Shown piece after piece: positions 16,335 through 63,054 of a stretch of DNA of 64,000 bases (position 1 is the first letter of the stretch; each line of letters starts with the position of its first letter). Under the pieces are notes generated by a model. That model ran no database searches, was not told where the DNA came from, and saw nothing but the letters and a program-made list of their open reading frames with translations. The DNA lies in NCBI GenBank assembly GCA_963769935.1, contig CAVYNY010000020.1:192001-256000 (forward strand), given 5' to 3'. This DNA comes from an uncultured delta proteobacterium (lineage in GTDB: Bacteria; Desulfobacterota; Desulfobacteria; Desulfobacterales; JAFDCJ01). The position numbers and the translations under genes are program-made.

Positions 16335-16415
16335 ATCACGAAAACACGAAATATAGAAATCACGAAATTTATCTTTTAACCTTTTCGTGTTTTCGTCCTT
16401 TCGAGCTTTCGTGAT
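16335..16415. repeat. Short inverted-arm element (CACGAAA / TTTCGTG arms)
   Basis: atcacgaaaacacgaaatatagaaatcacgaaa ... tttcgtgttttcgtcctttcgagctttcgtgat. Confidence 0.7.
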
Positions 16416-37119: not shown

Positions 37120-37335
37120 AAAATTCCAAATTTCAAGCACCAAATTCCAAATAAATTTCAAATCCCAATATCCAATGACCGAAACATTCATCAGAGTTGT
37201 ATCGTATCCGCTTCTAAACCCAGGTCTGCCGTTGATCTTTCCATTAGATACAATCGTCAAATGATTATTTGTTTGGAATTTTGAATTTCGGTGATTGGTA
37301 TTTGTTTGGAATTTGGTTTTTGGAGCTTGGAATTT
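37120..37335. repeat. Inverted-arm element, family A, copy 3
   Basis: aaattccaaatttcaagcaccaaattccaaataaatttcaaatcccaatatccaatgacc ... ggtgattggtatttgtttggaatttggtttttggagcttggaattt. Confidence 0.8.
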
Positions 37336-37401
37336 GTCATAACCTCATACTGATTATTTGACTTCGAGCACTTTTATTAGGGACCTAACGCTTAATTCTA
37401 C

Positions 37402-40654: not shown

Positions 40655-40825
40655 GCCCGTTGGCCCGTCTGCCGGTCAGCCGGTTTTCATGTGGGCCGGT
40701 AAACCGAAACGGGCCGGCGAACCTGTAGGCTGACCGGGCAGCTGACTAATCGGCCGACGGGTCAACCGGATAACCGGTCAACGAGCAAACGGGCCAACGG
40801 GCCAACCGGCTAACGGAACAACCCG
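40655..40825. repeat. Inverted-arm element, family B (CGTTGGCC / GGCCAACG octamers), copy 1
   Basis: gcccgttggcccgtctgccggtcagccggtt ... aaccggtcaacgagcaaacgggccaacgggccaaccggctaacgg. Confidence 0.75.
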
Positions 40826-51825: not shown

Positions 51826-51912
51826 GGGTTTGCCGGTTGGCCCGTTTGCCGGAGTGCCGGTTTACTGAAACGGGTCAACGGGCCCACGGGCTAACGGACT
51901 AACCGACCAACG
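51826..51912. repeat. Inverted-arm element, family B, copy 2
   Basis: gggtttgccggttggcccgtttgccgg ... aacgggtcaacgggcccacgggctaacggactaaccgaccaacg. Confidence 0.72.
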
Positions 51913-51924
51913 AGGACGACAGCC

Positions 51925-53436
51925 ATGTCAAACGAAGTATCCCATCTGACGATCACCGTTGATAAGAGTCATATTTTAAGCCTGGGCGAGCGGCTGTACG
52001 AGCAGAGCATCGAGCTGATCCGCGAACTGGTCAATAATGCCTACGATGCCGATGCCACGCGGGTGGATGTGACGGTCTCCGGCAAGGAGATTGTTGTGGC
52101 AGACAACGGCGATGGAATGGATATGACAGGACTTGAGCAATACTTCAATGTCGGTTCCGACGCCAAACTGCTTCATCCCAAATCTCCCCGGTTCGGCCGC
52201 GACCGCATCGGCCAGTTCGGCATCGGCAAGTTTGCAAGTCTGGCGGCCGCTTCCCGCTTTGAAATTACAACCCAGAAAGAAGCGTTTTGCGCCCGGGTCG
52301 TATTCGACCGAACCCGCTGGCTGGGACAGGGCGACTCCTGGGTGATCCCCCTTACGCGCCTGGAGCCTGATGCCGACCGGGGCAATGGGACCACCGTGCG
52401 CCTGGTAGATCTTAAAAGGATCTTCAAACCGGAGGACGTTACCCGGCGAATTGCCGAAGGTGTGCCGATCCGGGCCAAAAATTTTGCGGTTTACGTCAAC
52501 CGATATCGGGTGACGCCGCACCGATGGTCGGGCAACCGTATGCCGGTGATGGAAGGTACCCCTCACGGCATTATTCATGGAGAAATAGTGATTCTACCGG
52601 CTTCCCAGGCGTCCACCGAAAATATGGGAATCGAAATCAAGGTCAAGGGGGTCACGGTGCGGCGGGAGCTTTTCAATATCGCTGCCTGGGGCAAGGCCGC
52701 CACCCGCATCCGAGGAGAAATTCATGCCGATTTTCTGCCTTTGACCAGCGACCGGTCCGGATTTTTGGAGGACACCCCGCAATTTGAGGCTTTTCTGAAA
52801 GGCATGCAGAAAACAATTGCCGACGTTGAGAAGGTTTACCGGCAGCTGGCCTCCAAGAAGGAAAATCAAAAGGTCAGCCGGGCACTCAAGGAAGCGTTGC
52901 AGCGCGTTTATCAGGCGCTGTCCCTGAACCCGGAACTTTCCCCCTTCGGGGTTGTTCCGTTGGCGGAAAAAGGCCGCCCGGGCGTCGGCGAGACCGCCGT
53001 GGAATCCGGCTCGACGAACCAGGCGCCTGAGCAGATTAAGCCGCACGACGAGACCCGGCCGGATTCAGATCAGGGGAATGAACCATCCGCAGATGCGGAG
53101 GAGAAACCAAAAAAGGTGCGCAAGCCTTCTCTCAGAATTGCCACGCCGAACGCGGTGGTAAAAAGGCTCAAGTTCGGGGATACGGGTGTTACCTGCTGTC
53201 TGGATCACCTGGGGGAGGACGGACCGGAGTGTATTACGGAGGGAACGATCATTTATATCAACCGGGATCACCCTTTGTACAAACGCGAGTCCAAGAAAAA
53301 GGAAGCCCACATCCTGAACATCGCCCGTCTGATTACCCAGGAGATATCCCTGATGAAAGATTCGGCCAATCCGCGCGAGGCTTTCAACCGCCAGTCCAAA
53401 CTTCTGCGGGATGCCTTCAGAGACGCAGATGATTAG
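51925..53436 (+). CDS. GHKL (MORC/Hsp90-like, HATPase_c_3) ATPase
   Basis: RELVNNAYDA, DNGDGM, GQFGIGK, GTTV; C-terminal IYINRDHPLY. Confidence 0.88.
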   Translation: MSNEVSHLTITVDKSHILSLGERLYEQSIELIRELVNNAYDADATRVDVTVSGKEIVVADNGDGMDMTGLEQYFNVGSDAKLLHPKSPRFGRDRIGQFGIGKFASLAAASRFEITTQKEAFCARVVFDRTRWLGQGDSWVIPLTRLEPDADRGNGTTVRLVDLKRIFKPEDVTRRIAEGVPIRAKNFAVYVNRYRVTPHRWSGNRMPVMEGTPHGIIHGEIVILPASQASTENMGIEIKVKGVTVRRELFNIAAWGKAATRIRGEIHADFLPLTSDRSGFLEDTPQFEAFLKGMQKTIADVEKVYRQLASKKENQKVSRALKEALQRVYQALSLNPELSPFGVVPLAEKGRPGVGETAVESGSTNQAPEQIKPHDETRPDSDQGNEPSADAEEKPKKVRKPSLRIATPNAVVKRLKFGDTGVTCCLDHLGEDGPECITEGTIIYINRDHPLYKRESKKKEAHILNIARLITQEISLMKDSANPREAFNRQSKLLRDAFRDADD

Positions 53437-54801: not shown

Positions 54802-55611
54802 CTACACATCTATCCCAAAAATTTGAGGTTCTTTCCGAGTACTGCAATTTTCATTTAACCAGTTGGCAATTTTTTTCATCATGCTGTCTTCCCAAACCCT
54901 TGCACCTGTGGGACAGTTTTTAATACAAGCACAACAGCGAATGCATAGCTCGATTTTAGTTGCCACGCTCGCATTAATTGAAATGGCTGCAGTTGGACAT
55001 ACACTGGCGCACGTACCACAAACTGTGCATGTGTCTTCTTTGGTCACTGGTGAAACAGCCATAGATCGCGCTCCGCCTTCATATGGAAATCTGCCGGGAA
55101 TTTCCAAATCCATTTGGGCATCAGGTGATTGTAACGCTGTGACTTTATCTTTAATTTTTGCTCCAAAATCCATTGCCTTTTGAACATCCAGGCTATCCGG
55201 ACGTCCATTTGCGATGGGGACATCCTTTGTTGCAAAAGAGTGCTCCCCGATGAATGCACCACCGGCAACCGGATTAAAGCCTAACTCAATTGCAAGATTT
55301 TTTAATTCTAACAATGCATCTTCAAACTCCCGGTTCCCATATACAACTATGAGAATCGCTAAGGTTTTGCTTGCTTTTATCTGTTTGAATCGATTGATTG
55401 CATCAACTGGCAGACGACCACCGTAAACAGGTGCACCTATAATTACGAGTTCATCTGAAAAGGGCGGAATTGTTTGTTGAGCTCCTTCCGGAAGTGTCAA
55501 ATTAATATGCTCGACATCTTCAACAGTGATACCTTTAGCAATACTTTCCAATACTTTTTGAGTGGTTCCAGTGGGTGAAAAATAGATGAGTTTTACCTTT
55601 TTAACTTCCAT
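54802..55611 (-). CDS. Flavodoxin-fold plus 4Fe-4S protein (EFR1-like), cassette-borne
   Basis: YFSPTGTT, GAPVYGG, VYGNR; CTVCGTCASVCP, CIRCCACIKNCP; AT-rich; RBS aggagg. Confidence 0.88.
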   Translation of the reverse strand: MEVKKVKLIYFSPTGTTQKVLESIAKGITVEDVEHINLTLPEGAQQTIPPFSDELVIIGAPVYGGRLPVDAINRFKQIKASKTLAILIVVYGNREFEDALLELKNLAIELGFNPVAGGAFIGEHSFATKDVPIANGRPDSLDVQKAMDFGAKIKDKVTALQSPDAQMDLEIPGRFPYEGGARSMAVSPVTKEDTCTVCGTCASVCPTAAISINASVATKIELCIRCCACIKNCPTGARVWEDSMMKKIANWLNENCSTRKEPQIFGIDV

Positions 55612-55791
55612 TGTTATCTCCTCCTGCTCACGAGAGCTTCCCATAAATACCTTCATTTGCTCTTCTTTCAATTACGATTATTATAAATTTGGGGGGGATT
55701 TATGGGACGTCCATTGATTTATTGATTTTTGCCTGATACCGGTTGAGAGAATATAAACGATGCATATCCATAAAATTTTATAATATCAGAT

Positions 55792-55935
55792 ATGTCTGAA
55801 CAAAAAAATCGAAAATTATTGGATGAGGTGCGGGATTACTTGCAGCTTCATCATTATTCGATTTATACAGAAAGAACCTGTTACGACTGGATAATAAAAT
55901 TTGTTCAATTTCACCAAATGAAATCAAGAAAGGAT
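55792..55935 (+). pseudogene. intI: Integron integrase N-terminal (SAM-like) fragment
   Basis: KLLDEVRDYLQLHHYSIYTERTCYDWIIKFVQFH matches the IntI N-terminus; divergent from an attC-ended cassette; catalytic domain absent. Confidence 0.78.
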
Positions 55936-56105
55936 TCGAAACGTTTCGACAAATTTCATCCGAGTCTTTTCCCTTTCATTTTTAATAAATTTGTGATTAA
56001 TTTTTCACAACAAAAAAAATATTATCCTTATCATCAGTGTCCCATATTTTTAAACTATGAGCGATCCGCTATCAACCGCAGGGCGGACATCTTGGGGGTG
56101 TTTCC

Positions 56106-58157
56106 ATGTCCGATAACACTGAGATTTCCAAGGCAATGAATATCCACCTGGGAGAAATTTTTGATGATTTGCCTGCCATGCCGCAATTTGTGGAAGGCAT
56201 TCGCCGCGCGCCCGCCCGGCATTTTAACCTCTCTCAAAAAGATACCGCGCTAGCCCTTAAAAATGCCCTGCGCTACATTCCTGAAAAGTGGCATCAGACC
56301 CTGGCGCCCGAGTTCCTGGAGGAGCTGCTCTCAAGGGGTCGAATTTACGGTTACCGATTCAGACCTGAAGGTACGCTCAAAGGCAAGCCGATTGAAGAAT
56401 ACCGGGGCAACTGCATCGAAGGCCAAGCCTTTCAGGTCATGATTGAAAACAACCTGGACTTTGATGTGGCCCTGTATCCTTACGAACTGGTGACCTACGG
56501 CGAAACCGGTCAGGTCTGCCAGAACTGGATGCAGTACCGGCTGATCAAGCGCTACCTGGAGGTGCTTACCCGAGACCAGACCCTGGTGATGGAATCCGGC
56601 CATCCGCTGGGCTTGTTTGCGTCATCGCCGGATGCCCCGCGGGTGATCATCACCAATGCGCTGATGGTGGGCTGCTTTGACGACCAGGACAACTGGCACC
56701 GCGCCATGGCACTGGGGGTGGCCAACTACGGCCAGATGACGGCCGGCGGCTGGATGTACATCGGCCCCCAGGGAATCGTGCACGGTACTTACAGCACCAT
56801 TCTCAATGCCGGACGGGCCAAGCTGGGGATACCCGCCGATAAAGATTTAACCGGACATTTGTTCGTATCCTCCGGGCTGGGCGGCATGAGCGGCGCCCAG
56901 GGCAAGGCCGTGGAGATTGCCAACGGGGTGGCCGTCATCGCCGAGGTCGATAAAACCAGGATTCAAACCCGGCTGGAACAGGGATGGATTAAAAAATCCG
57001 TCGAAGATCCGGCCGAAGCCTTCAAACTGGCGGCCGACCACCTGCGGGCCCAAAAGAGCATCTCCATCGCCTATTCCGGCAACGTGGTGGATCTGATCGA
57101 ATACGCGGTCAACAGCCATATTAAAATTGGTTTGCTGTCGGATCAAACGTCCTGCCACGCGGTCTACGAGGGCGGGTACTGCCCCCAGGGGATTTCGTTT
57201 GAAGAGCGCACGGAGCTGCTAAAGTCCGGCCATGCCGGCTTCAAGGAAATGGTGGACGCTACCCTGAGACGTCATTATGAATTGATTAAAATCCTGGTTG
57301 AGCGCGGGACCTATTTTTTCGATTACGGCAACAGTTTTTTAAAGGCCGTTTATGATGCCGGCGTCACCGATATCTGCAAAAACGGGAAGGATGCGCTGGA
57401 TGGATTTGTTTTACAATCCTACGTGGAAGACCTCATGGGACCCATTCTGTTCGACTACGGCTACGGTCCCTTTCGCTGGGTGTGCCTGAGCGGCAGGCAG
57501 GAAGATCTGCTCAAAACCGATCAGGCCGCCATGGCGTGCATTGATCCGGACCGCCGATTTCAGGATCGCGACAACTACATCTGGATCAGGGACGCCGCCC
57601 AAAACAAACTGGTGGTCGGCACCAAAGCCAGGATATTATACCAGGATGCCTGGGGCCGCATGACCATTGCCCTTAAATTCAACGAAATGGTGCGCACCGG
57701 AGCAATCGGCCCGGTGATGCTGGGCCGGGACCACCACGACACCGGCGGCACGGATTCGCCCTTCAGGGAAACCGCCAACATCAAAGACGGCAGCAATATC
57801 ATGGCGGACATGGCCACCCAGTGCTTTGCCGGCAATGCCTGCCGCGGCATGAGCCTGGTGGCCCTGCACAACGGCGGCGGCGTCGGCATCGGCAAGGCCA
57901 TCAACGGCGGCTTCGGCCTGGTATTGGACGGCAGTGAACGCGTGGATAACGTCATCAAAAAGGCCATCCCCTGGGATGTTATGGGCGGCGTTGCCCGCCG
58001 CGCCTGGGCCCGCAATGAAAATTCCATCGCCACCGGCATCGCCTATAATGAAATGCGCCGGGACTCGGATCATATCACATTGCCGTTTCTTACCGATGAG
58101 AGGATGGTGGAAGGCCTGGTATCGAAAGCCTTTGAAAAACTAGAAGCGAAAGGTTAG
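56106..58157 (+). CDS. hutU: Urocanate hydratase (long form)
   Basis: YGQMTAGGWMYIGPQGIVHGT, GLGGMSGAQ, DQTSCH, GRDHHD, HNGGGVG. Confidence 0.96.
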   Translation: MSDNTEISKAMNIHLGEIFDDLPAMPQFVEGIRRAPARHFNLSQKDTALALKNALRYIPEKWHQTLAPEFLEELLSRGRIYGYRFRPEGTLKGKPIEEYRGNCIEGQAFQVMIENNLDFDVALYPYELVTYGETGQVCQNWMQYRLIKRYLEVLTRDQTLVMESGHPLGLFASSPDAPRVIITNALMVGCFDDQDNWHRAMALGVANYGQMTAGGWMYIGPQGIVHGTYSTILNAGRAKLGIPADKDLTGHLFVSSGLGGMSGAQGKAVEIANGVAVIAEVDKTRIQTRLEQGWIKKSVEDPAEAFKLAADHLRAQKSISIAYSGNVVDLIEYAVNSHIKIGLLSDQTSCHAVYEGGYCPQGISFEERTELLKSGHAGFKEMVDATLRRHYELIKILVERGTYFFDYGNSFLKAVYDAGVTDICKNGKDALDGFVLQSYVEDLMGPILFDYGYGPFRWVCLSGRQEDLLKTDQAAMACIDPDRRFQDRDNYIWIRDAAQNKLVVGTKARILYQDAWGRMTIALKFNEMVRTGAIGPVMLGRDHHDTGGTDSPFRETANIKDGSNIMADMATQCFAGNACRGMSLVALHNGGGVGIGKAINGGFGLVLDGSERVDNVIKKAIPWDVMGGVARRAWARNENSIATGIAYNEMRRDSDHITLPFLTDERMVEGLVSKAFEKLEAKG

Positions 58158-58365
58158 CCCGTTTGCCAGTTGCCGGTTATCCGGTTATCCTCGCCGTAGC
58201 GGGATTTAGCCTGTCGAAAACATATTGGCTAATTGGCTAACAGGCCAACGGATTAAGGGGCCACGGGCCAACCGGCCAACCATGGCCAACGGGCTAACGG
58301 CCCAACGGCCCAACGGGCTAACGGGCCAACGGGCTAACAGGCCAACGGGCTAACAGGCGCAACCG
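58152..58365. repeat. Inverted-arm element, family B, copy 3
   Basis: ggttagcccgtttgccagttgccggttatccggttatcc ... more than ten ggc(c/t)aac(g/a) units; begins at the hutU stop codon. Confidence 0.82.
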
Positions 58366-58380
58366 ATCAAGGAGAAAAAA

Positions 58381-59286
58381 ATGTCATCGATGAAAAAGAT
58401 ATTGGAATGCGTACCGAATTTCAGCGAGGGGCGCGATCTGGATAAATTGGAAAAAATCCTGGAACCTTTGCGCGGCAAAGACGGTGTCAAGCTGTTGGAC
58501 TTTCAAAACGATGAAGACCACAACCGGGCGGTCGTTACGATCGTCGGCGAGCCCGATCCGTTGAAGGCCGCCGTCATTGAATCCATGGGGGTTGCCATCG
58601 AGGTCATCGATATGCGCCGGCATCAGGGCCAGCACCCCCGGATGGGCGCCATCGATGTGGTCCCGTTTATTCCGGTGAAAAATATCAGCCTGGAGGAGGC
58701 GGTCGATATTTCAAAGGATGTCGCCGCGAAGGCGGCCGCCAAGTACAATCTGCCGATTTATTTATATGAGAAATCCGCCTCCAAGCCCGAACGGCAAAAC
58801 CTGGCTGCCGTCAGAAAGGGTCAGTTCGAGGGCATGGCTGAAAAAATCACCCAGCCGGAGTGGAAGCCTGATTTCGGTCCGGCGCAGATTCACCCTTCGG
58901 CCGGGGTGACTGCCATGGGTGCCAGGATGCCGCTGGTGGCCTATAATGTGAATTTAGCCACCCCTGATTTTGAAATCGCCGACAAGATCGCCAGGCAGGT
59001 CCGGCACCTTAGCGGCGGTCTGCGATACTGCAAGGCGATCGGCATTGAATTAAAGGACCGGGGCCTGGTCCAGGTTTCGATGAATATGACCGACTACAGC
59101 AAAACCGCCTTATACCGCGTGTTTGAGCTGATAAAAATCGAAGCCCGGCGCTACGGCGTCAGTGTCGTGGGCAGCGAAATCATCGGCCTGGTGCCCATGG
59201 AAGCCCTGATGGACACCGCGGCCTATTACCTGGGGCTGGAGGATTTTTCCATGGAGCAGGTGCTGGAGACGAGGATATGGGAGTAG
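58381..59286 (+). CDS. ftcD: Glutamate formiminotransferase
   Basis: ECVPNFSEGR, DHNR, HPRMGAIDVVPF, QVSMN. Confidence 0.95.
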   Translation: MSSMKKILECVPNFSEGRDLDKLEKILEPLRGKDGVKLLDFQNDEDHNRAVVTIVGEPDPLKAAVIESMGVAIEVIDMRRHQGQHPRMGAIDVVPFIPVKNISLEEAVDISKDVAAKAAAKYNLPIYLYEKSASKPERQNLAAVRKGQFEGMAEKITQPEWKPDFGPAQIHPSAGVTAMGARMPLVAYNVNLATPDFEIADKIARQVRHLSGGLRYCKAIGIELKDRGLVQVSMNMTDYSKTALYRVFELIKIEARRYGVSVVGSEIIGLVPMEALMDTAAYYLGLEDFSMEQVLETRIWE

Positions 59287-59290
59287 GGCT

Positions 59291-59360
59291 GGATGCTGGA
59301 TACTGGATGCTGGATACTGGATGCTGGATGTTGGATGCTGGAAGCTTGATACCGGCTGCT
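59291..59360 (+). repeat. Heptamer tandem array (GGATGCT)x10, left arm
   Basis: ggatgct ggatact ggatgct ggatact ggatgct ggatgtt ggatgct ggaagct tgatacc ggctgct. Confidence 0.9.
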
Positions 59361-59427
59361 GGATTAAAGATGATAGATGGTCAGAATGCATACTATGAAC
59401 AAATAGAAAAGGATTAAGGGGGGAAGT

Positions 59428-59805
59428 TTGAGCTATAAGAAATTGGAAATTTGGCAGCTTGCTCATGAACTGGTTATTGACAAACATTTTATGACTCTGA
59501 ATAAGCTGCCAAAATTTGAAATGTATGAGGAAGGGGCTCAAATTCGGAAATCTTGCAAATCGGTAAAATCGACAATTGTGGAAGGCTACGGAAGGCGAAG
59601 ATACAAGCAGGAATTTATTCGTTTCCTAACTTATGCATTGGGTTCAAATGATGAAACACTTGATCATCTCGAAACACTATTTGAGACCGGTTCATTAACC
59701 GATCGCCCATTATATGAAGAGCTGCATCAGCGGATTGACCTTTTAGGGAAAAAAATAAATCTATTCATTCAATCCGTCCAAAAAAAACATATCAGCGAAA
59801 AGTGA
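59428..59805 (+). CDS. Four helix bundle protein (TIGR02436 / 23S rRNA IVP / Avd-like family)
   Basis: [46 protein letters not shown]-rich relative to neighbours. Confidence 0.9.
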
Positions 59806-59844
59806 CAATTTTTTAACTTTTTAGATCAAGCTATCAAAAATTAT

Positions 59845-59895
59845 GCACCAGCATCATCAAGTATCGAGTATCAAGCATCCAGCATCCAGCATCAA
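59845..59895 (-). repeat. Heptamer tandem array (AGCATCC)n, right arm, reverse complement of 59291-59360
   Basis: ccagcatcatcaagtatcgagtatcaagcatccagcatccagcatc. Confidence 0.85.
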
Positions 59896-59966
59896 TTCGA
59901 AAAGTGCTTGACCTTCATTGACACTAACCATACAGGAACAAATAAAACAAAATAAAGGGCAACTCC

Positions 59967-61259
59967 ATGAATGGCAACATGATCATCAAAAACGCTTCCG
60001 AGCTGGTTACCTGCAGCGGATTTGCAGCCAAAAGGGGCGCGGATATGGCCGAGCTGCACATTATTTCCGACGGCGCTGTAATCATTAAAGCAGGCAGGAT
60101 CGAGGCAGTCGGAACGACGGAAGATATTGAAGCCAAACTGGGAAAGACCGGTGCGGATTTATCCGGCTTCGATGTCATCGATGCGCAAGGCAAGGCCGTT
60201 CTGCCCGGCTTTGTCGACTCGCACACCCATTTTGTTTTCGGCGGCTACCGGGCGGAAGAATTTGCCTGGCGCCTGCGCGGCGACGGCTACATGCAGATCA
60301 TGCAGCGCGGCGGCGGAATCGTCAATACGGTAAAGGCCACTCAAAAAGCCGACGCCAATGAACTGCTGCAATCCGGTATCAAACGGCTGGACTCCATGCT
60401 TTCCTTCGGGGTCACCACGGTTGAATGCAAAAGCGGCTATGGTCTGGATAAAGATACCGAGATCAAGCAGCTTGAAGTCATCAACCACCTGGACGGCATC
60501 CACTATATCGACATCGTCCCCACTTTTCTGGGCGCCCACGCGGTGCCCGCAAACTTCAAAGGCCGGGAAGATGAGTTTATCGAATTCATGGTCGAAGAAG
60601 TCATGCCGGTGGTAGCCGAGCGCAAGTTGGCGCAGTATTGCGATATCTTTTGCGAAAAAAATGTCTTCTCCGTCGAACAGTCCCGGCGATATCTCAGTAA
60701 AGCCAAAGAAATGGGTTTCAAGCTCAAACTTCACGCCGATGAAATCGTGCAGCTCGGAGGGGCCGAGCTGGCCGCTGAACTTCAGGCGACGTCGGCCGAT
60801 CATCTGCTGCAGGCTTCCGACGAAGGCATCCGGCAAATGGCCAAGGCCGGTGTGGTGGCCATCCTGCTGCCCGGAACCGCTTTCAGCCTGAAAGAAGCCT
60901 ATGCCCGCGGGCGTTTTATCATCGACAGCAATTGTGCCGTCGCGCTGGCGACTGATTTAAATCCGGGAAGCTGTTTCACGGAATCCATTCCCTTAATATT
61001 TGCCCTGGCAACCCTTTATATGGGCATCACAACCGAGGAAGCGGTTTCAGCATTGACAATCAACGCGGCGGCCGCCCTCGACAGAGCCGATGCCATCGGC
61101 AGCCTGGATGCCGGCAAACAGGGCGACCTGGTTGTGCTCGAATATCCTTCATATAAGTTCATTCCCTATCATATCGGGGTCAGCACCGTTGAAAAGGTCG
61201 TCAAAAATGGAAATCTGGTTTTTGATAAAGAAAAAAAAGGAGGGGTGATATATTGTTGA
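59967..61259 (+). CDS. hutI: Imidazolonepropionase
   Basis: PGFVDSHTH, GGGI, KSGYGL, LGAHA, LHADE, ATDLNPG. Confidence 0.96.
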   Translation: MNGNMIIKNASELVTCSGFAAKRGADMAELHIISDGAVIIKAGRIEAVGTTEDIEAKLGKTGADLSGFDVIDAQGKAVLPGFVDSHTHFVFGGYRAEEFAWRLRGDGYMQIMQRGGGIVNTVKATQKADANELLQSGIKRLDSMLSFGVTTVECKSGYGLDKDTEIKQLEVINHLDGIHYIDIVPTFLGAHAVPANFKGREDEFIEFMVEEVMPVVAERKLAQYCDIFCEKNVFSVEQSRRYLSKAKEMGFKLKLHADEIVQLGGAELAAELQATSADHLLQASDEGIRQMAKAGVVAILLPGTAFSLKEAYARGRFIIDSNCAVALATDLNPGSCFTESIPLIFALATLYMGITTEEAVSALTINAAAALDRADAIGSLDAGKQGDLVVLEYPSYKFIPYHIGVSTVEKVVKNGNLVFDKEKKGGVIYC

Positions 61260-61870
61260 CCGATCAAAAAATTACTGATTTCTTGCAGCAAACCGCTTCC
61301 GGAACGCCCGTTCCCGGGGGAGGTTCCGTTTCCGCCTTGAGTGCGGCCCTGGGAGCAGGGCTTACGGAAATGGTGGCAAATTTGACCGTGGGCAAAAAAA
61401 ATTATGAGGCGGTTGAAGGCGAAATGAAAAAAATTTCTGAGACGGCCGCCAACCTCAGAAAAAAACTGACGGCCGAAGTCGACAATGACGCCACTGCCTA
61501 CCAGGGAGTCCTGGCGGCGTTTAAATTGCCCCAAACGACGGAAGCCGAAAAAGAAACTCGAAGCCGGGCAATTCAGGAGGCCATGAAAAATGCCGCCCGG
61601 GTGCCGCTGGGGGTAGCCTATGATGCCCTGCAGGTTATGGATCTGGCTGAAACGGTGATAAGGAGCGGCAACCGGAATGCCGTCTCAGACGGCGCCGTAG
61701 GGGCGATGATGGCACGCACGGCCGTCCGGGGCGCGTTATTTAATGTGAAAATAAACCTGGTCTCCGTGAAAGACAAAGCCTTTGTCAAAGAAATGATGCA
61801 GGAAGCAAATAAACTGGAACAGCGGGTGCAGGAGCGGGAGAAAGAGATACTGGCATATGTGAGAATATAG
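61253..61870 (+). CDS. Formiminotetrahydrofolate cyclodeaminase / methenyl-THF cyclohydrolase (FchA-like)
   Basis: PVPGGGSVSA, MVANLT, GNRNAVSD, NVKINL. Confidence 0.92.
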   Translation: MLTDQKITDFLQQTASGTPVPGGGSVSALSAALGAGLTEMVANLTVGKKNYEAVEGEMKKISETAANLRKKLTAEVDNDATAYQGVLAAFKLPQTTEAEKETRSRAIQEAMKNAARVPLGVAYDALQVMDLAETVIRSGNRNAVSDGAVGAMMARTAVRGALFNVKINLVSVKDKAFVKEMMQEANKLEQRVQEREKEILAYVRI

Positions 61871-61872
61871 CT

Positions 61873-62118
61873 GGTTGTAAGTTGTGGGTTGTATGTGGTG
61901 AGTTGTATGTTGTGAGTTGTGTGTTGTCTGTTGTGAGTTGTGAGTTGTTTGTGGGGTGTTGAATGGGCATTTATTGTTTGCTGCTAACCAGCTGTCGTGA
62001 ATTGGCTGTAGCATTCGAAGTAAAATAGCGAATACAAAAAGCCAACTTTATGCAAGCGGGTTTTTTTTCGCGGTTGAAAACCGCTCCCACCCACAACATT
62101 CAACCCACAACTTACACC
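61873..62118. repeat. Inverted-arm element, family E (GTTGTGA / CACAAC heptamers) enclosing a REP-like hairpin
   Basis: ggttgtaagttgtgggttg... versus ...caacccacaacttacacc; internal cgcggttgaaaaccgctcccac. Confidence 0.8.
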
Positions 62119-62190
62119 TCGCAATATCTACCATATTAGATAATTGCATATTACTATGTTAAGGCTGCAATCCGCGCCTCAGGCAATTCC

Positions 62191-63054
62191 ATGCAACTAT
62201 TTTTCGAACAATTACTCAACGGCATCGCTATGGGCTCCATCTATGCCCTGATCACCTTGGGGCTGGCGCTGGTTTATGGAATCCTGCGCATCCTGCATGT
62301 GGCTCACGCCGCGATTTACACGGTTGGTGCCTACGTGGGGCTTTATTTATTTCATCTGAGCGGCAGCCTGATTGTCGGCGTGGCCGGCAGCATGGTATTT
62401 TGCGCCGTACTCGGGGTGGCCATCGAACGGTTTGTTTACTACCCGCTGCTGAAGTACCCACCCTATGTCCCCCTGATCGGCAGCATTGCCGTGATGCTGG
62501 CGATCGAAGAGCTTTGCCGTCTGATTGCCGGTCCGCAGATTTTAACCTTTCCGGCTGAATTGCCTTTTCCTGAATTTCAAATCGGCGGCATTAACATATC
62601 ATCCACTTTGATGGCGGTTTATTGTATAACGGCCGTCGTGCTGATTGTGCTCTGGTATATTACCAGTAAAACGGAGCTGGGGCTGGCCATGCGGGCGACC
62701 TCCCAGGATATTCAGATTGCCGATGCCATGGGAATCAACAGCCACATTATCATCAGCATAACCTTTGTCATCGGCTCCGCCATCGCCGCGTTGGCCGGGA
62801 TTCTGGTCGGCATATATTACAACCAGGTTTATCCGACCATGGGCGCGGTGCCGGCTTACAAAACCCTAGCCCTGATCGTTGTCGGCGGGCTGGGATCGGT
62901 TCCGGGTGCTGTCATTGCTTCCCTGCTGCTCGGCGTGGCGGAAACACTGCTCATCGGATATGCCAATATTCCATTGCCCCGGGATGCGCTGGCATTCATC
63001 GCCATGATCGGTGTGCTGATGTGGCGCTCGGAAGGACTGCTCGGGTCGCGTTAG
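62191..63054 (+). CDS. Branched-chain amino acid ABC permease, LivH-like
   Basis: NGIAMGSIYAL..LGL.LVYG, GLAMRATSQD, VVGGLGS. Confidence 0.92.
   Translation: MQLFFEQLLNGIAMGSIYALITLGLALVYGILRILHVAHAAIYTVGAYVGLYLFHLSGSLIVGVAGSMVFCAVLGVAIERFVYYPLLKYPPYVPLIGSIAVMLAIEELCRLIAGPQILTFPAELPFPEFQIGGINISSTLMAVYCITAVVLIVLWYITSKTELGLAMRATSQDIQIADAMGINSHIIISITFVIGSAIAALAGILVGIYYNQVYPTMGAVPAYKTLALIVVGGLGSVPGAVIASLLLGVAETLLIGYANIPLPRDALAFIAMIGVLMWRSEGLLGSR

Follow-up and report, generated by a model that had tools for sequence, protein, structure and literature searches.

A four-helix-bundle gene enclosed by inverted heptamer arrays and exchanged between bacteria at operon junctions: a possible selfish cassette

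The stretch of DNA analysed here, 64 kb in length (hereafter the window), comes from the genome labelled G000; other G numbers denote the genomes compared with it, while L, C and X denote loci, contigs and sequencing runs. Between ftcD and hutI, the window holds a PF05635/TIGR02436 gene enclosed by complementary terminal arms of tandem heptamers, a build known from rRNA intervening sequences (IVS), yet located at this gene junction and not inside an rRNA gene (Table 1). The initial annotation had placed ten GGATGCT units 4 nt after the ftcD stop. The coordinates agree as to the position (the first GGATGCT lies 4 nt past the ftcD end at 59286) and a tandem heptamer arm is indeed present, but the figure of ten describes a consensus only, because no more than 4 of the 11 degenerate left-arm heptamers (77% matches) are exact CTGGATG, two being CTGGATA and five carrying one or two changes. 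The reverse-complement right arm was likewise recovered, though more degenerate than claimed, with an exact AGCATCC in only two of its six to seven or so units. The enclosed ORF starts with TTG and is AT-rich as described (GC 37%, against 54-56% in ftcD and hutI).

Table 1. Coordinates of the cassette, its neighbours and related elements (positions in the window unless a locus or contig is named)
Feature	Position	Strand	Remarks
Gene-less 8-mer hairpin, GGCCAACG family	58158..58363	+	between hutU and ftcD
ftcD	58381..59286	+	upstream host gene, context; TIGR02024, 432 bits; cassette starts at its stop codon
Left arm	59288..59364	+	11 degenerate heptamers, family consensus CT-N-GAT-R
AT-rich spacer	59365..59427	+	putative ribosome-binding-like G-rich run at its end
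Four-helix-bundle gene, PF05635/TIGR02436	59428..59805	+	125 aa, intact, purifying selection
Right arm	59845..59895	+	about 6-7 reverse-complement heptamers
Spacer	59896..59966	+	likely hutI ribosome-binding site; missing in the compact empty allele, retained in the 77-nt allele
hutI	59967..61259	+	downstream host gene, context; TIGR01224, 481 bits
Gene-less hairpin, GTTGTGA-type heptamers	61874..~62125	+	3 nt past the stop of an fchA-like gene; right end approximate
IS91-family element copies, G007	L231:626-4446 and L232-L236		
~250-bp MITE loci	G018: L301-L312 and L299; G015: L298, L300; G000: e.g. C15:29881, C22:598789		

In the predicted RNA fold of positions 59270-59975 the arms form an imperfect stem from which the gene is looped out (-193.6 kcal/mol, z -5.6, none of 20 shuffles as good), in agreement with the stem proposed from the letters alone. 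Also as first read, neither transposase nor RT lies inside the cassette, and no target duplication is seen. The 10 PF00078 matches of G000 include none at this locus, so that no RT lies beside the gene; its neighbours are hut genes only, without a Y2 transposase, and IS91 end profiles find no match there. Rfam gave no match of note in 55500-62300, and a sigma-70 scan was uninformative (five weak sites vs 2.0 expected).

Other gene-less hairpins are scattered in the window. The one upstream of ftcD shares its unit family with a truncated paralogue on contig C11; it is 66 nt shorter in the X8 and X9 strains and is skipped (171 nt) in one X10 contig. Further inverted 7-/8-mer arrays without a gene lie at 16335-16413, 37121-37336 (the C-rich arm first, the opposite of the usual order), 40663-40823 and 51827-51912, and a 503-aa ORF at 51925-53436, with arrays just upstream, has by eye the look of a GHKL-type ATPase. 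Such empty hairpins had been taken for non-autonomous relatives of the cassette. Gene-less hairpins do share units with gene-bearing cassettes, but most of those in the window belong to other repeat families and are thus kin to sister cassettes rather than to the present one.

The 125-aa product matches TIGR02436 with 83.6 bits (cut-off 24) and PF05635 with 82.8 bits (cut-off 33.8). Its predicted model (pLDDT 96) shares its fold with Xcc0516 (2GSC; TM 0.85, E 5e-6), BT_0352 (2RLD; TM 0.73-0.76) and Avd (4DWL; TM 0.73), the last match being weak by E-value (0.13); profile scores and structure match together uphold the family assignment and the kinship with Avd. Between the G000 gene and the G018 copy, dN is 0.09 and dS 1.19, and the gene is intact and under purifying selection. 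No close relatives were found in viral contigs or phages, and all plasmid matches stay below 60% identity. The GxxExxY genes of G000 are not enclosed by inverted 7-9-mer arrays.

Each protein clade is paired with one repeat unit. The flanks of homologues had been proposed as a check, and paired arms prove to be general there: among the closest relatives (best 80 of 382 GTDB loci, 66-85% identity, less three with short flanks), GGATRCT-type arms stand on both sides in 72 of 77 and GAAGATT-type arms in none; among relatives of the C13 paralogue (80 from metagenomes, less 14 with short flanks), GAAGATT-type arms stand in 61 of 66 and GGATRCT in none, the nine unit variants per family having been picked after the data were seen. 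The best 80 loci span Desulfobacterota, Ignavibacteria, Bacteroidota, Calditrichia, Verrucomicrobia, Planctomycetes, KSB1 and Marinimicrobia, and their counts are not independent because many loci share a site. A de novo array search reached a score of at least 24 in 66/77 near flanks vs 0/59 distant flanks taken as control. Over 45 loci the unit reads CT-N-GAT-R; either arm tolerates any base at position 3, and position 7 is without G-U asymmetry. The unit drifts with protein identity, from CTGGATR at 69% or above through CTSGTTR at 54-57% and CGGGTTR at 45-51% to GACAGAT or GGATTAA at 30-35%, GACAGAT adjoining the 35% relative L210; one armless relative at 61% and one at 70% with another unit are exceptions.

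The upstream neighbours belong to 47 gene families among 78 loci and are mostly co-oriented, the left arm usually beginning at the upstream stop. The outer flanks of the relatives do not align, hence the window cassette carries no conserved non-periodic terminal repeats of the kind that end a MITE. At L052 (dxr), L055, L058, L064, L070 and L098 the left arm itself provides the stop codon and last codons of the upstream gene.

At the ftcD site the cassette comes and goes. The clade gene is present in 6 of 23 genomes of the genus, single-copy and always after ftcD. Eighteen ftcD loci of the genus have downstream sequence: five hold the full cassette, one a truncated version, five a compact gap of ~10 nt, and the remaining seven hold remnants, other hairpins or other spacers, with filled and empty states interleaved on the ftcD tree. 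The clearest exchange concerns G007 and G010, in which ftcD is 90.7% identical (9.3% of bases differ, dS 0.34) and the cassette gene 99.5% (2 of 375 bases, dS 0.00; binomial p 1e-13). Arms apart, near-identity sets in ~12 nt upstream of the ftcD stop and ceases ~15 nt upstream of the hutI start, and the sister loci L008 and L025 are empty. In genomes of other families the cassette lies after ftcD in three and before it in one; between G195 and G224, ftcD is 82% and the gene 64% identical, with different arms. Most ftcD-site copies form one clade, and an AU test on 48 sequences (fast search) does not reject their monophyly (p 0.19); therefore long residence and many losses would explain part of the pattern; the copies are best regarded as a site-faithful lineage subject to exchange and replacement. 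G102 and one clade of the genus (L003, L004, L006, L007, L011, L213) do not have hutI between ftcD and the fchA-like gene.

Close strains tell of the same site. Twenty sequencing runs hold the region, of which seven were compared, as contigs. In a DNA contig from X10 (1831 nt, ~95% alike), 59282 is joined directly to 59967 with an ATGA stop-start overlap, hence a clean empty allele exists as DNA. Parts of the ORF are present in X1, X2, X10, X11 and X12, and the contigs of five DNA runs, from which rare forms are dropped, revealed no circle junction. Empty ftcD-hutI sites, which the initial annotation had suggested looking for, thus occur both in genomes of the genus and in contigs of near strains, and the gene is not fixed there. 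Of the conditions that the initial annotation set for refuting its reading, two bear on sequence data (homologues generally without paired arms; a gene fixed between ftcD and hutI), and neither holds. Presence and absence at one site, joined to one recent transfer between species, establish the cassette as mobile.

Tandem arrays of period 5-10 number 884 throughout the G000 genome. Those with a period of 7-9 make up 865 of this total and are mostly gene-less; 813 of the 865 lie outside long ORFs and 302 have an inverted partner within 700 nt, vs 41 with a unit of another family in that place. G000 has seven TIGR02436 matches, six of which have inverted arms, by eye with a different unit each time (automatic pairing of arms recovered four of these cassettes); a 5' truncation affects one of these six cassettes, and the seventh match is frameshifted, with arrays of the same direction. 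Several abundant repeat families are gene-less in this genome. Arrays lie at most 10 nt from a stop codon in 190 of 454 array-bearing gaps (null mean 135.5, maximum 159, 1000 draws), and likewise in 101 of 344 roomy gaps (46 expected), an enrichment to be read as an upper estimate because genes were called crudely and stop codons occur within the units. Folding of the empty hairpins is unbiased between leading and lagging strands, the replication strand being taken from local GC skew only. In a few long ORFs (C10:579889, C17:200184, C18:284553, C35:135408 and C38:28847), GGATRCT arrays run in frame. Elsewhere, for instance at C33:17560-17846, hairpins of different families are nested, as if newer ones insert in older loops.

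Across 250 genomes of the order, at least five exact triple-repeat matches were counted in 9 of 11 genomes with the clade gene (called at 70% identity or more) vs 15 of 239 without, counts which include each cassette's own arms and come from kin that are not independent; the GAAGATT-type unit was found in 1/11 carriers vs 28/239 non-carriers. For the C13 clade, any cognate match was found in 7/15 vs 22/235 genomes, and at least five in 1/15 vs 8/235. A tie between gene and arrays of the kind seen in REPIN-RAYT systems is thus strong for the window clade and weak for the C13 paralogue. Matches to the window unit also abound in drafts (83-92% complete) that lack the clade gene, namely 288 in G002, 276 in G015, 86 in G003 and, in G004, a number within 76-288, which means that the persistence of arrays does not need the gene.

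The closest known kind of element is the ORF-bearing 23S rRNA IVS of Coxiella burnetii and, as cited in the same paper, of Leptospira (PMC4990558). The Coxiella IVS is described there as an S23p ORF with a 28-bp stem and GACAGAT heptamers, cut by RNase III; like the cassette, it holds its PF05635 ORF where a terminal stem loops out, with tandem heptamers upstream of the ORF, its heptamer being that found beside L210 and its repeat number differing between strains. Unlike the IVS, the cassette sits at mRNA operon junctions, at many unrelated sites, with an intact ORF under purifying selection, a clade-specific unit and hundreds of gene-less hairpins. REPIN-RAYT systems (REP, BIME) likewise combine a single-copy gene with a family of intergenic hairpins that outlast it, several families per genome; their partner is, however, a Y1 HUH transposase and not a four-helix bundle without known catalytic role, and the cassette differs also by its tandem 7-9-mer arms and by having the gene inside the hairpin. 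In contrast to Avd in a DGR, the cassette protein (14% identical to Avd) adjoins no RT, template repeat or target gene. The cassette thus belongs to none of the REPIN-RAYT, DGR and IS91 groups; it is built like an ORF-bearing rRNA IVS, yet located in an operon.

Along the same line, intergenic tandem 7-8-mers, patchy across phyla, are on record: paired tandem 7-8-mer sites on opposite strands in Geobacter metallireducens, with ISGme8/9 nearby (PMC2700814), and TAACTGA repeats in Beggiatoaceae (PMC4679880). The accessible text of neither paper ties such arrays to a four-helix-bundle gene, and a literature search mostly confined to papers outside subscription found none that describes operons in which a PF05635 gene stands between inverted arrays specific to its clade.

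What best accounts for these observations, with a probability that I put at about one half, is a cassette of gene plus repeats that moves as one unit at operon junctions, likely selfish, whose ring-forming protein would bind its own arms while the enzyme that moves it is likely borrowed. Its likely selfish nature is suggested by the joint gain, loss and swapping of gene and repeats between bacteria. The build, the pairing of protein and unit, the mobility, and the position at a stop codon with both host genes intact are matters of observation. The steps that would follow are these. The host operon transcript would yield the protein, which may assemble like its solved pentameric homologues 2GSC and Avd and recognise the CT-N-GAT-R array in hairpin form. 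Recognition would tag the cassette, as well as hairpins that share its unit but hold no gene, as substrates to be copied, whether through recombination or through a single-strand enzyme that the host or an IS encodes (in one sister lineage, an IS91-family HUH transposase). Slippage could then lengthen or shorten the arms, and gene-less hairpins would outlast a lost gene. Several observations speak against the selfish cassette: within the genus the clade gene is single-copy and always after ftcD, so that no genome shows new copies; arrays have no Y1 transposase and few RT loci in their vicinity, and the IS91 subfamily is not found in 50 genomes with this cassette type; arrays are plentiful in drafts without the gene, and the genome link of the C13 clade is weak. 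The pairing of protein and unit, too, could arise from linked inheritance alone.

A broader version of the selfish cassette may be put forward tentatively. These elements would form a widespread selfish class. A pentameric Avd-like protein would read the code that tandem 7-9-mers, different in each clade, spell out on the hairpin arms, and would thereby license its own cassette, along with hundreds of gene-less hairpins, for copying to stop codons by a borrowed single-strand transposase; rRNA IVSs would have arisen from copies inserted in rRNA, and the known heptamer arrays would be the non-autonomous population. If so, rRNA intervening sequences would represent one landing site of a general element. 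In any event, the finding joins two old puzzles, namely the large, Avd-related PF05635 family, with two solved structures and function unknown, and the intergenic 7-9-mer arrays. The pairing of protein and unit allows binding to be tested directly, each non-cognate unit serving as a negative control, and the near-identical copy in two species, together with the empty alleles, delimits the moving unit.

A rather doubtful alternative regards the protein as a regulator that binds the repeats and is otherwise carried along passively; the arrays would be its sites (for autoregulation, or for control of operon mRNA or DNA). The arrays would have spread by slippage and within MITEs or IS, and the gene would have been swapped by homologous recombination in the flanking genes. 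Freedom at position 3 in both arms and the lack of G-U asymmetry at position 7 are to be expected of a motif that is bound, more so than of a stem under selection; purifying selection and a single copy per genome point the same way, and the paired sites of Geobacter are interpreted as regulator sites in PMC2700814. Moreover, a MITE of ~250 bp, bounded by terminal inverted repeats and recently amplified in G018, carries GGATGCT hairpins; G018 has 13 of its loci, G015 two and G000 ~20 decayed copies. No cognate transposase of this MITE was found in G000, searches with its head as DNA gave no match in 10 genomes, and an identification of that head as an IS91 oriIS was rejected, the head being one of the two terminal inverted repeats. 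A regulator is, however, hard to square with the G007/G010 near-identity, which ends within ~15 nt of both cassette ends and is sharper than a usual recombination tract, with the rarity of arrays in divergent, promoter-bearing gaps (7% vs 11-13%), or with a patchy presence in many unrelated host operons, which suits a selfish unit.

It is unlikely that the cassette acts as an IVS of mRNA, in which RNase III would cut the stem, thereby splitting the operon transcript or freeing the gene RNA, and spread would proceed via a reverse-transcribed copy, the Avd-like protein aiding a host RT. The precedents are the Coxiella IVS, of the same build down to its heptamers and cut by RNase III (PMC4990558), and Avd, which, according to 10.1101/2023.10.23.563531, attaches to a stem-loop of RNA and without which the RT of a DGR does not work; the predicted stem and the closeness of arrays to stop codons also fit. 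Yet empty hairpins fold equally well on the sense and antisense strands (60:55, n=115), which lends no support to a stem at the RNA level; judging by the 45-locus frequencies, mismatches would fall at roughly every second position-3 pair, and RNase III cuts without rejoining. As for a host RT, those of G000 resemble by eye the group II intron type. An RNA-library contig from X8 (705 nt, 98% alike) does join ftcD to hutI without the gene, 59287 being linked to 59963 through 77 other letters; missing from it are the left arm and the gene, as well as most of the right arm. This junction may reflect a DNA allele or a loss at the RNA level; the first 30 letters of its spacer match 59885-59914 at 25 positions, five differences that point to another strain, and an empty allele is known in DNA. 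The two RNA runs belong to one study, and that their contigs do not cover the ORF is by itself no evidence.

None of the 11 Y1 transposase (PF01797) loci in G000 has an array within 1.5 kb, and only 2 of 9 RT loci examined are near one, at 0.5-1.3 kb. In G007, by contrast with the window cassette, a PF05635 gene (55% identical to the C9 paralogue of G000) travels with a transposase, in the order GAAC left end, TGGAATRA arm, PF05635 gene, PF14319+PF04986 transposase, inverted arm and fixed right end. Seven transposase copies are present, and six elements compared whole are 99.2-100% identical at unrelated sites. With a Y2 transposase, GTTC-type terIS, multiple copies and no target duplication seen, this is an IS91-family element; as in IS91 (available text of PMC13181058), its gene lies just upstream of tnpA, though its target side is A/T-rich and differs from the GTTC/CTTG of IS91. 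The linkage recurs in G010, arm and transposase occur together in G001, and deleted derivatives exist in G000, G004, G008, G018 and G021. Since arms lie inside both this element and the MITE, they use other elements as vehicles at least sometimes, and the IS91-linked sister element provides a lead to a candidate mobilising enzyme for the selfish cassette. The window cassette, however, has no transposase and neither the ends of that element nor those of the MITE. The transposase subfamily, with 224 database relatives, was not found in 300 genomes of the class, 401 of the phylum and 50 with a window-type cassette.

Least likely of all, despite the seven-copy G007 element, the G010 linkage, the decay series in G000, G001, G004, G008, G018 and G021, and the terIS ends and orf121 reported for IS91 in PMC13181058, is a general descent of these cassettes from rolling-circle transposons of the IS91-like HUH type. 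In that case the gene would be an accessory ORF like orf121, the arms would be subterminal sites, and transposase and ends would have been lost here. Against this, relatives of the G007 transposase occur in the retrieved flanks of 0 of 80 window-clade and 0 of 80 C13-paralogue loci, distant IS91 transposases (25-37% identity; L237-L282) have no PF05635 gene adjoining, element end motifs occur on only 3 of 88 TGGAAT-type arms in G000, and the ACGT-type end is not enriched around arrays.

In the G007 element, a short palindrome interrupts both ORFs, and two copies hold an IS110-like ORF (family assigned by eye). A GC-rich palindrome of 32-40 nt (L231:678, 834-890 and 1885-1918), with many copies in G000, interrupts genes and other elements, and an IS110-like ORF adjoins one of its copies.
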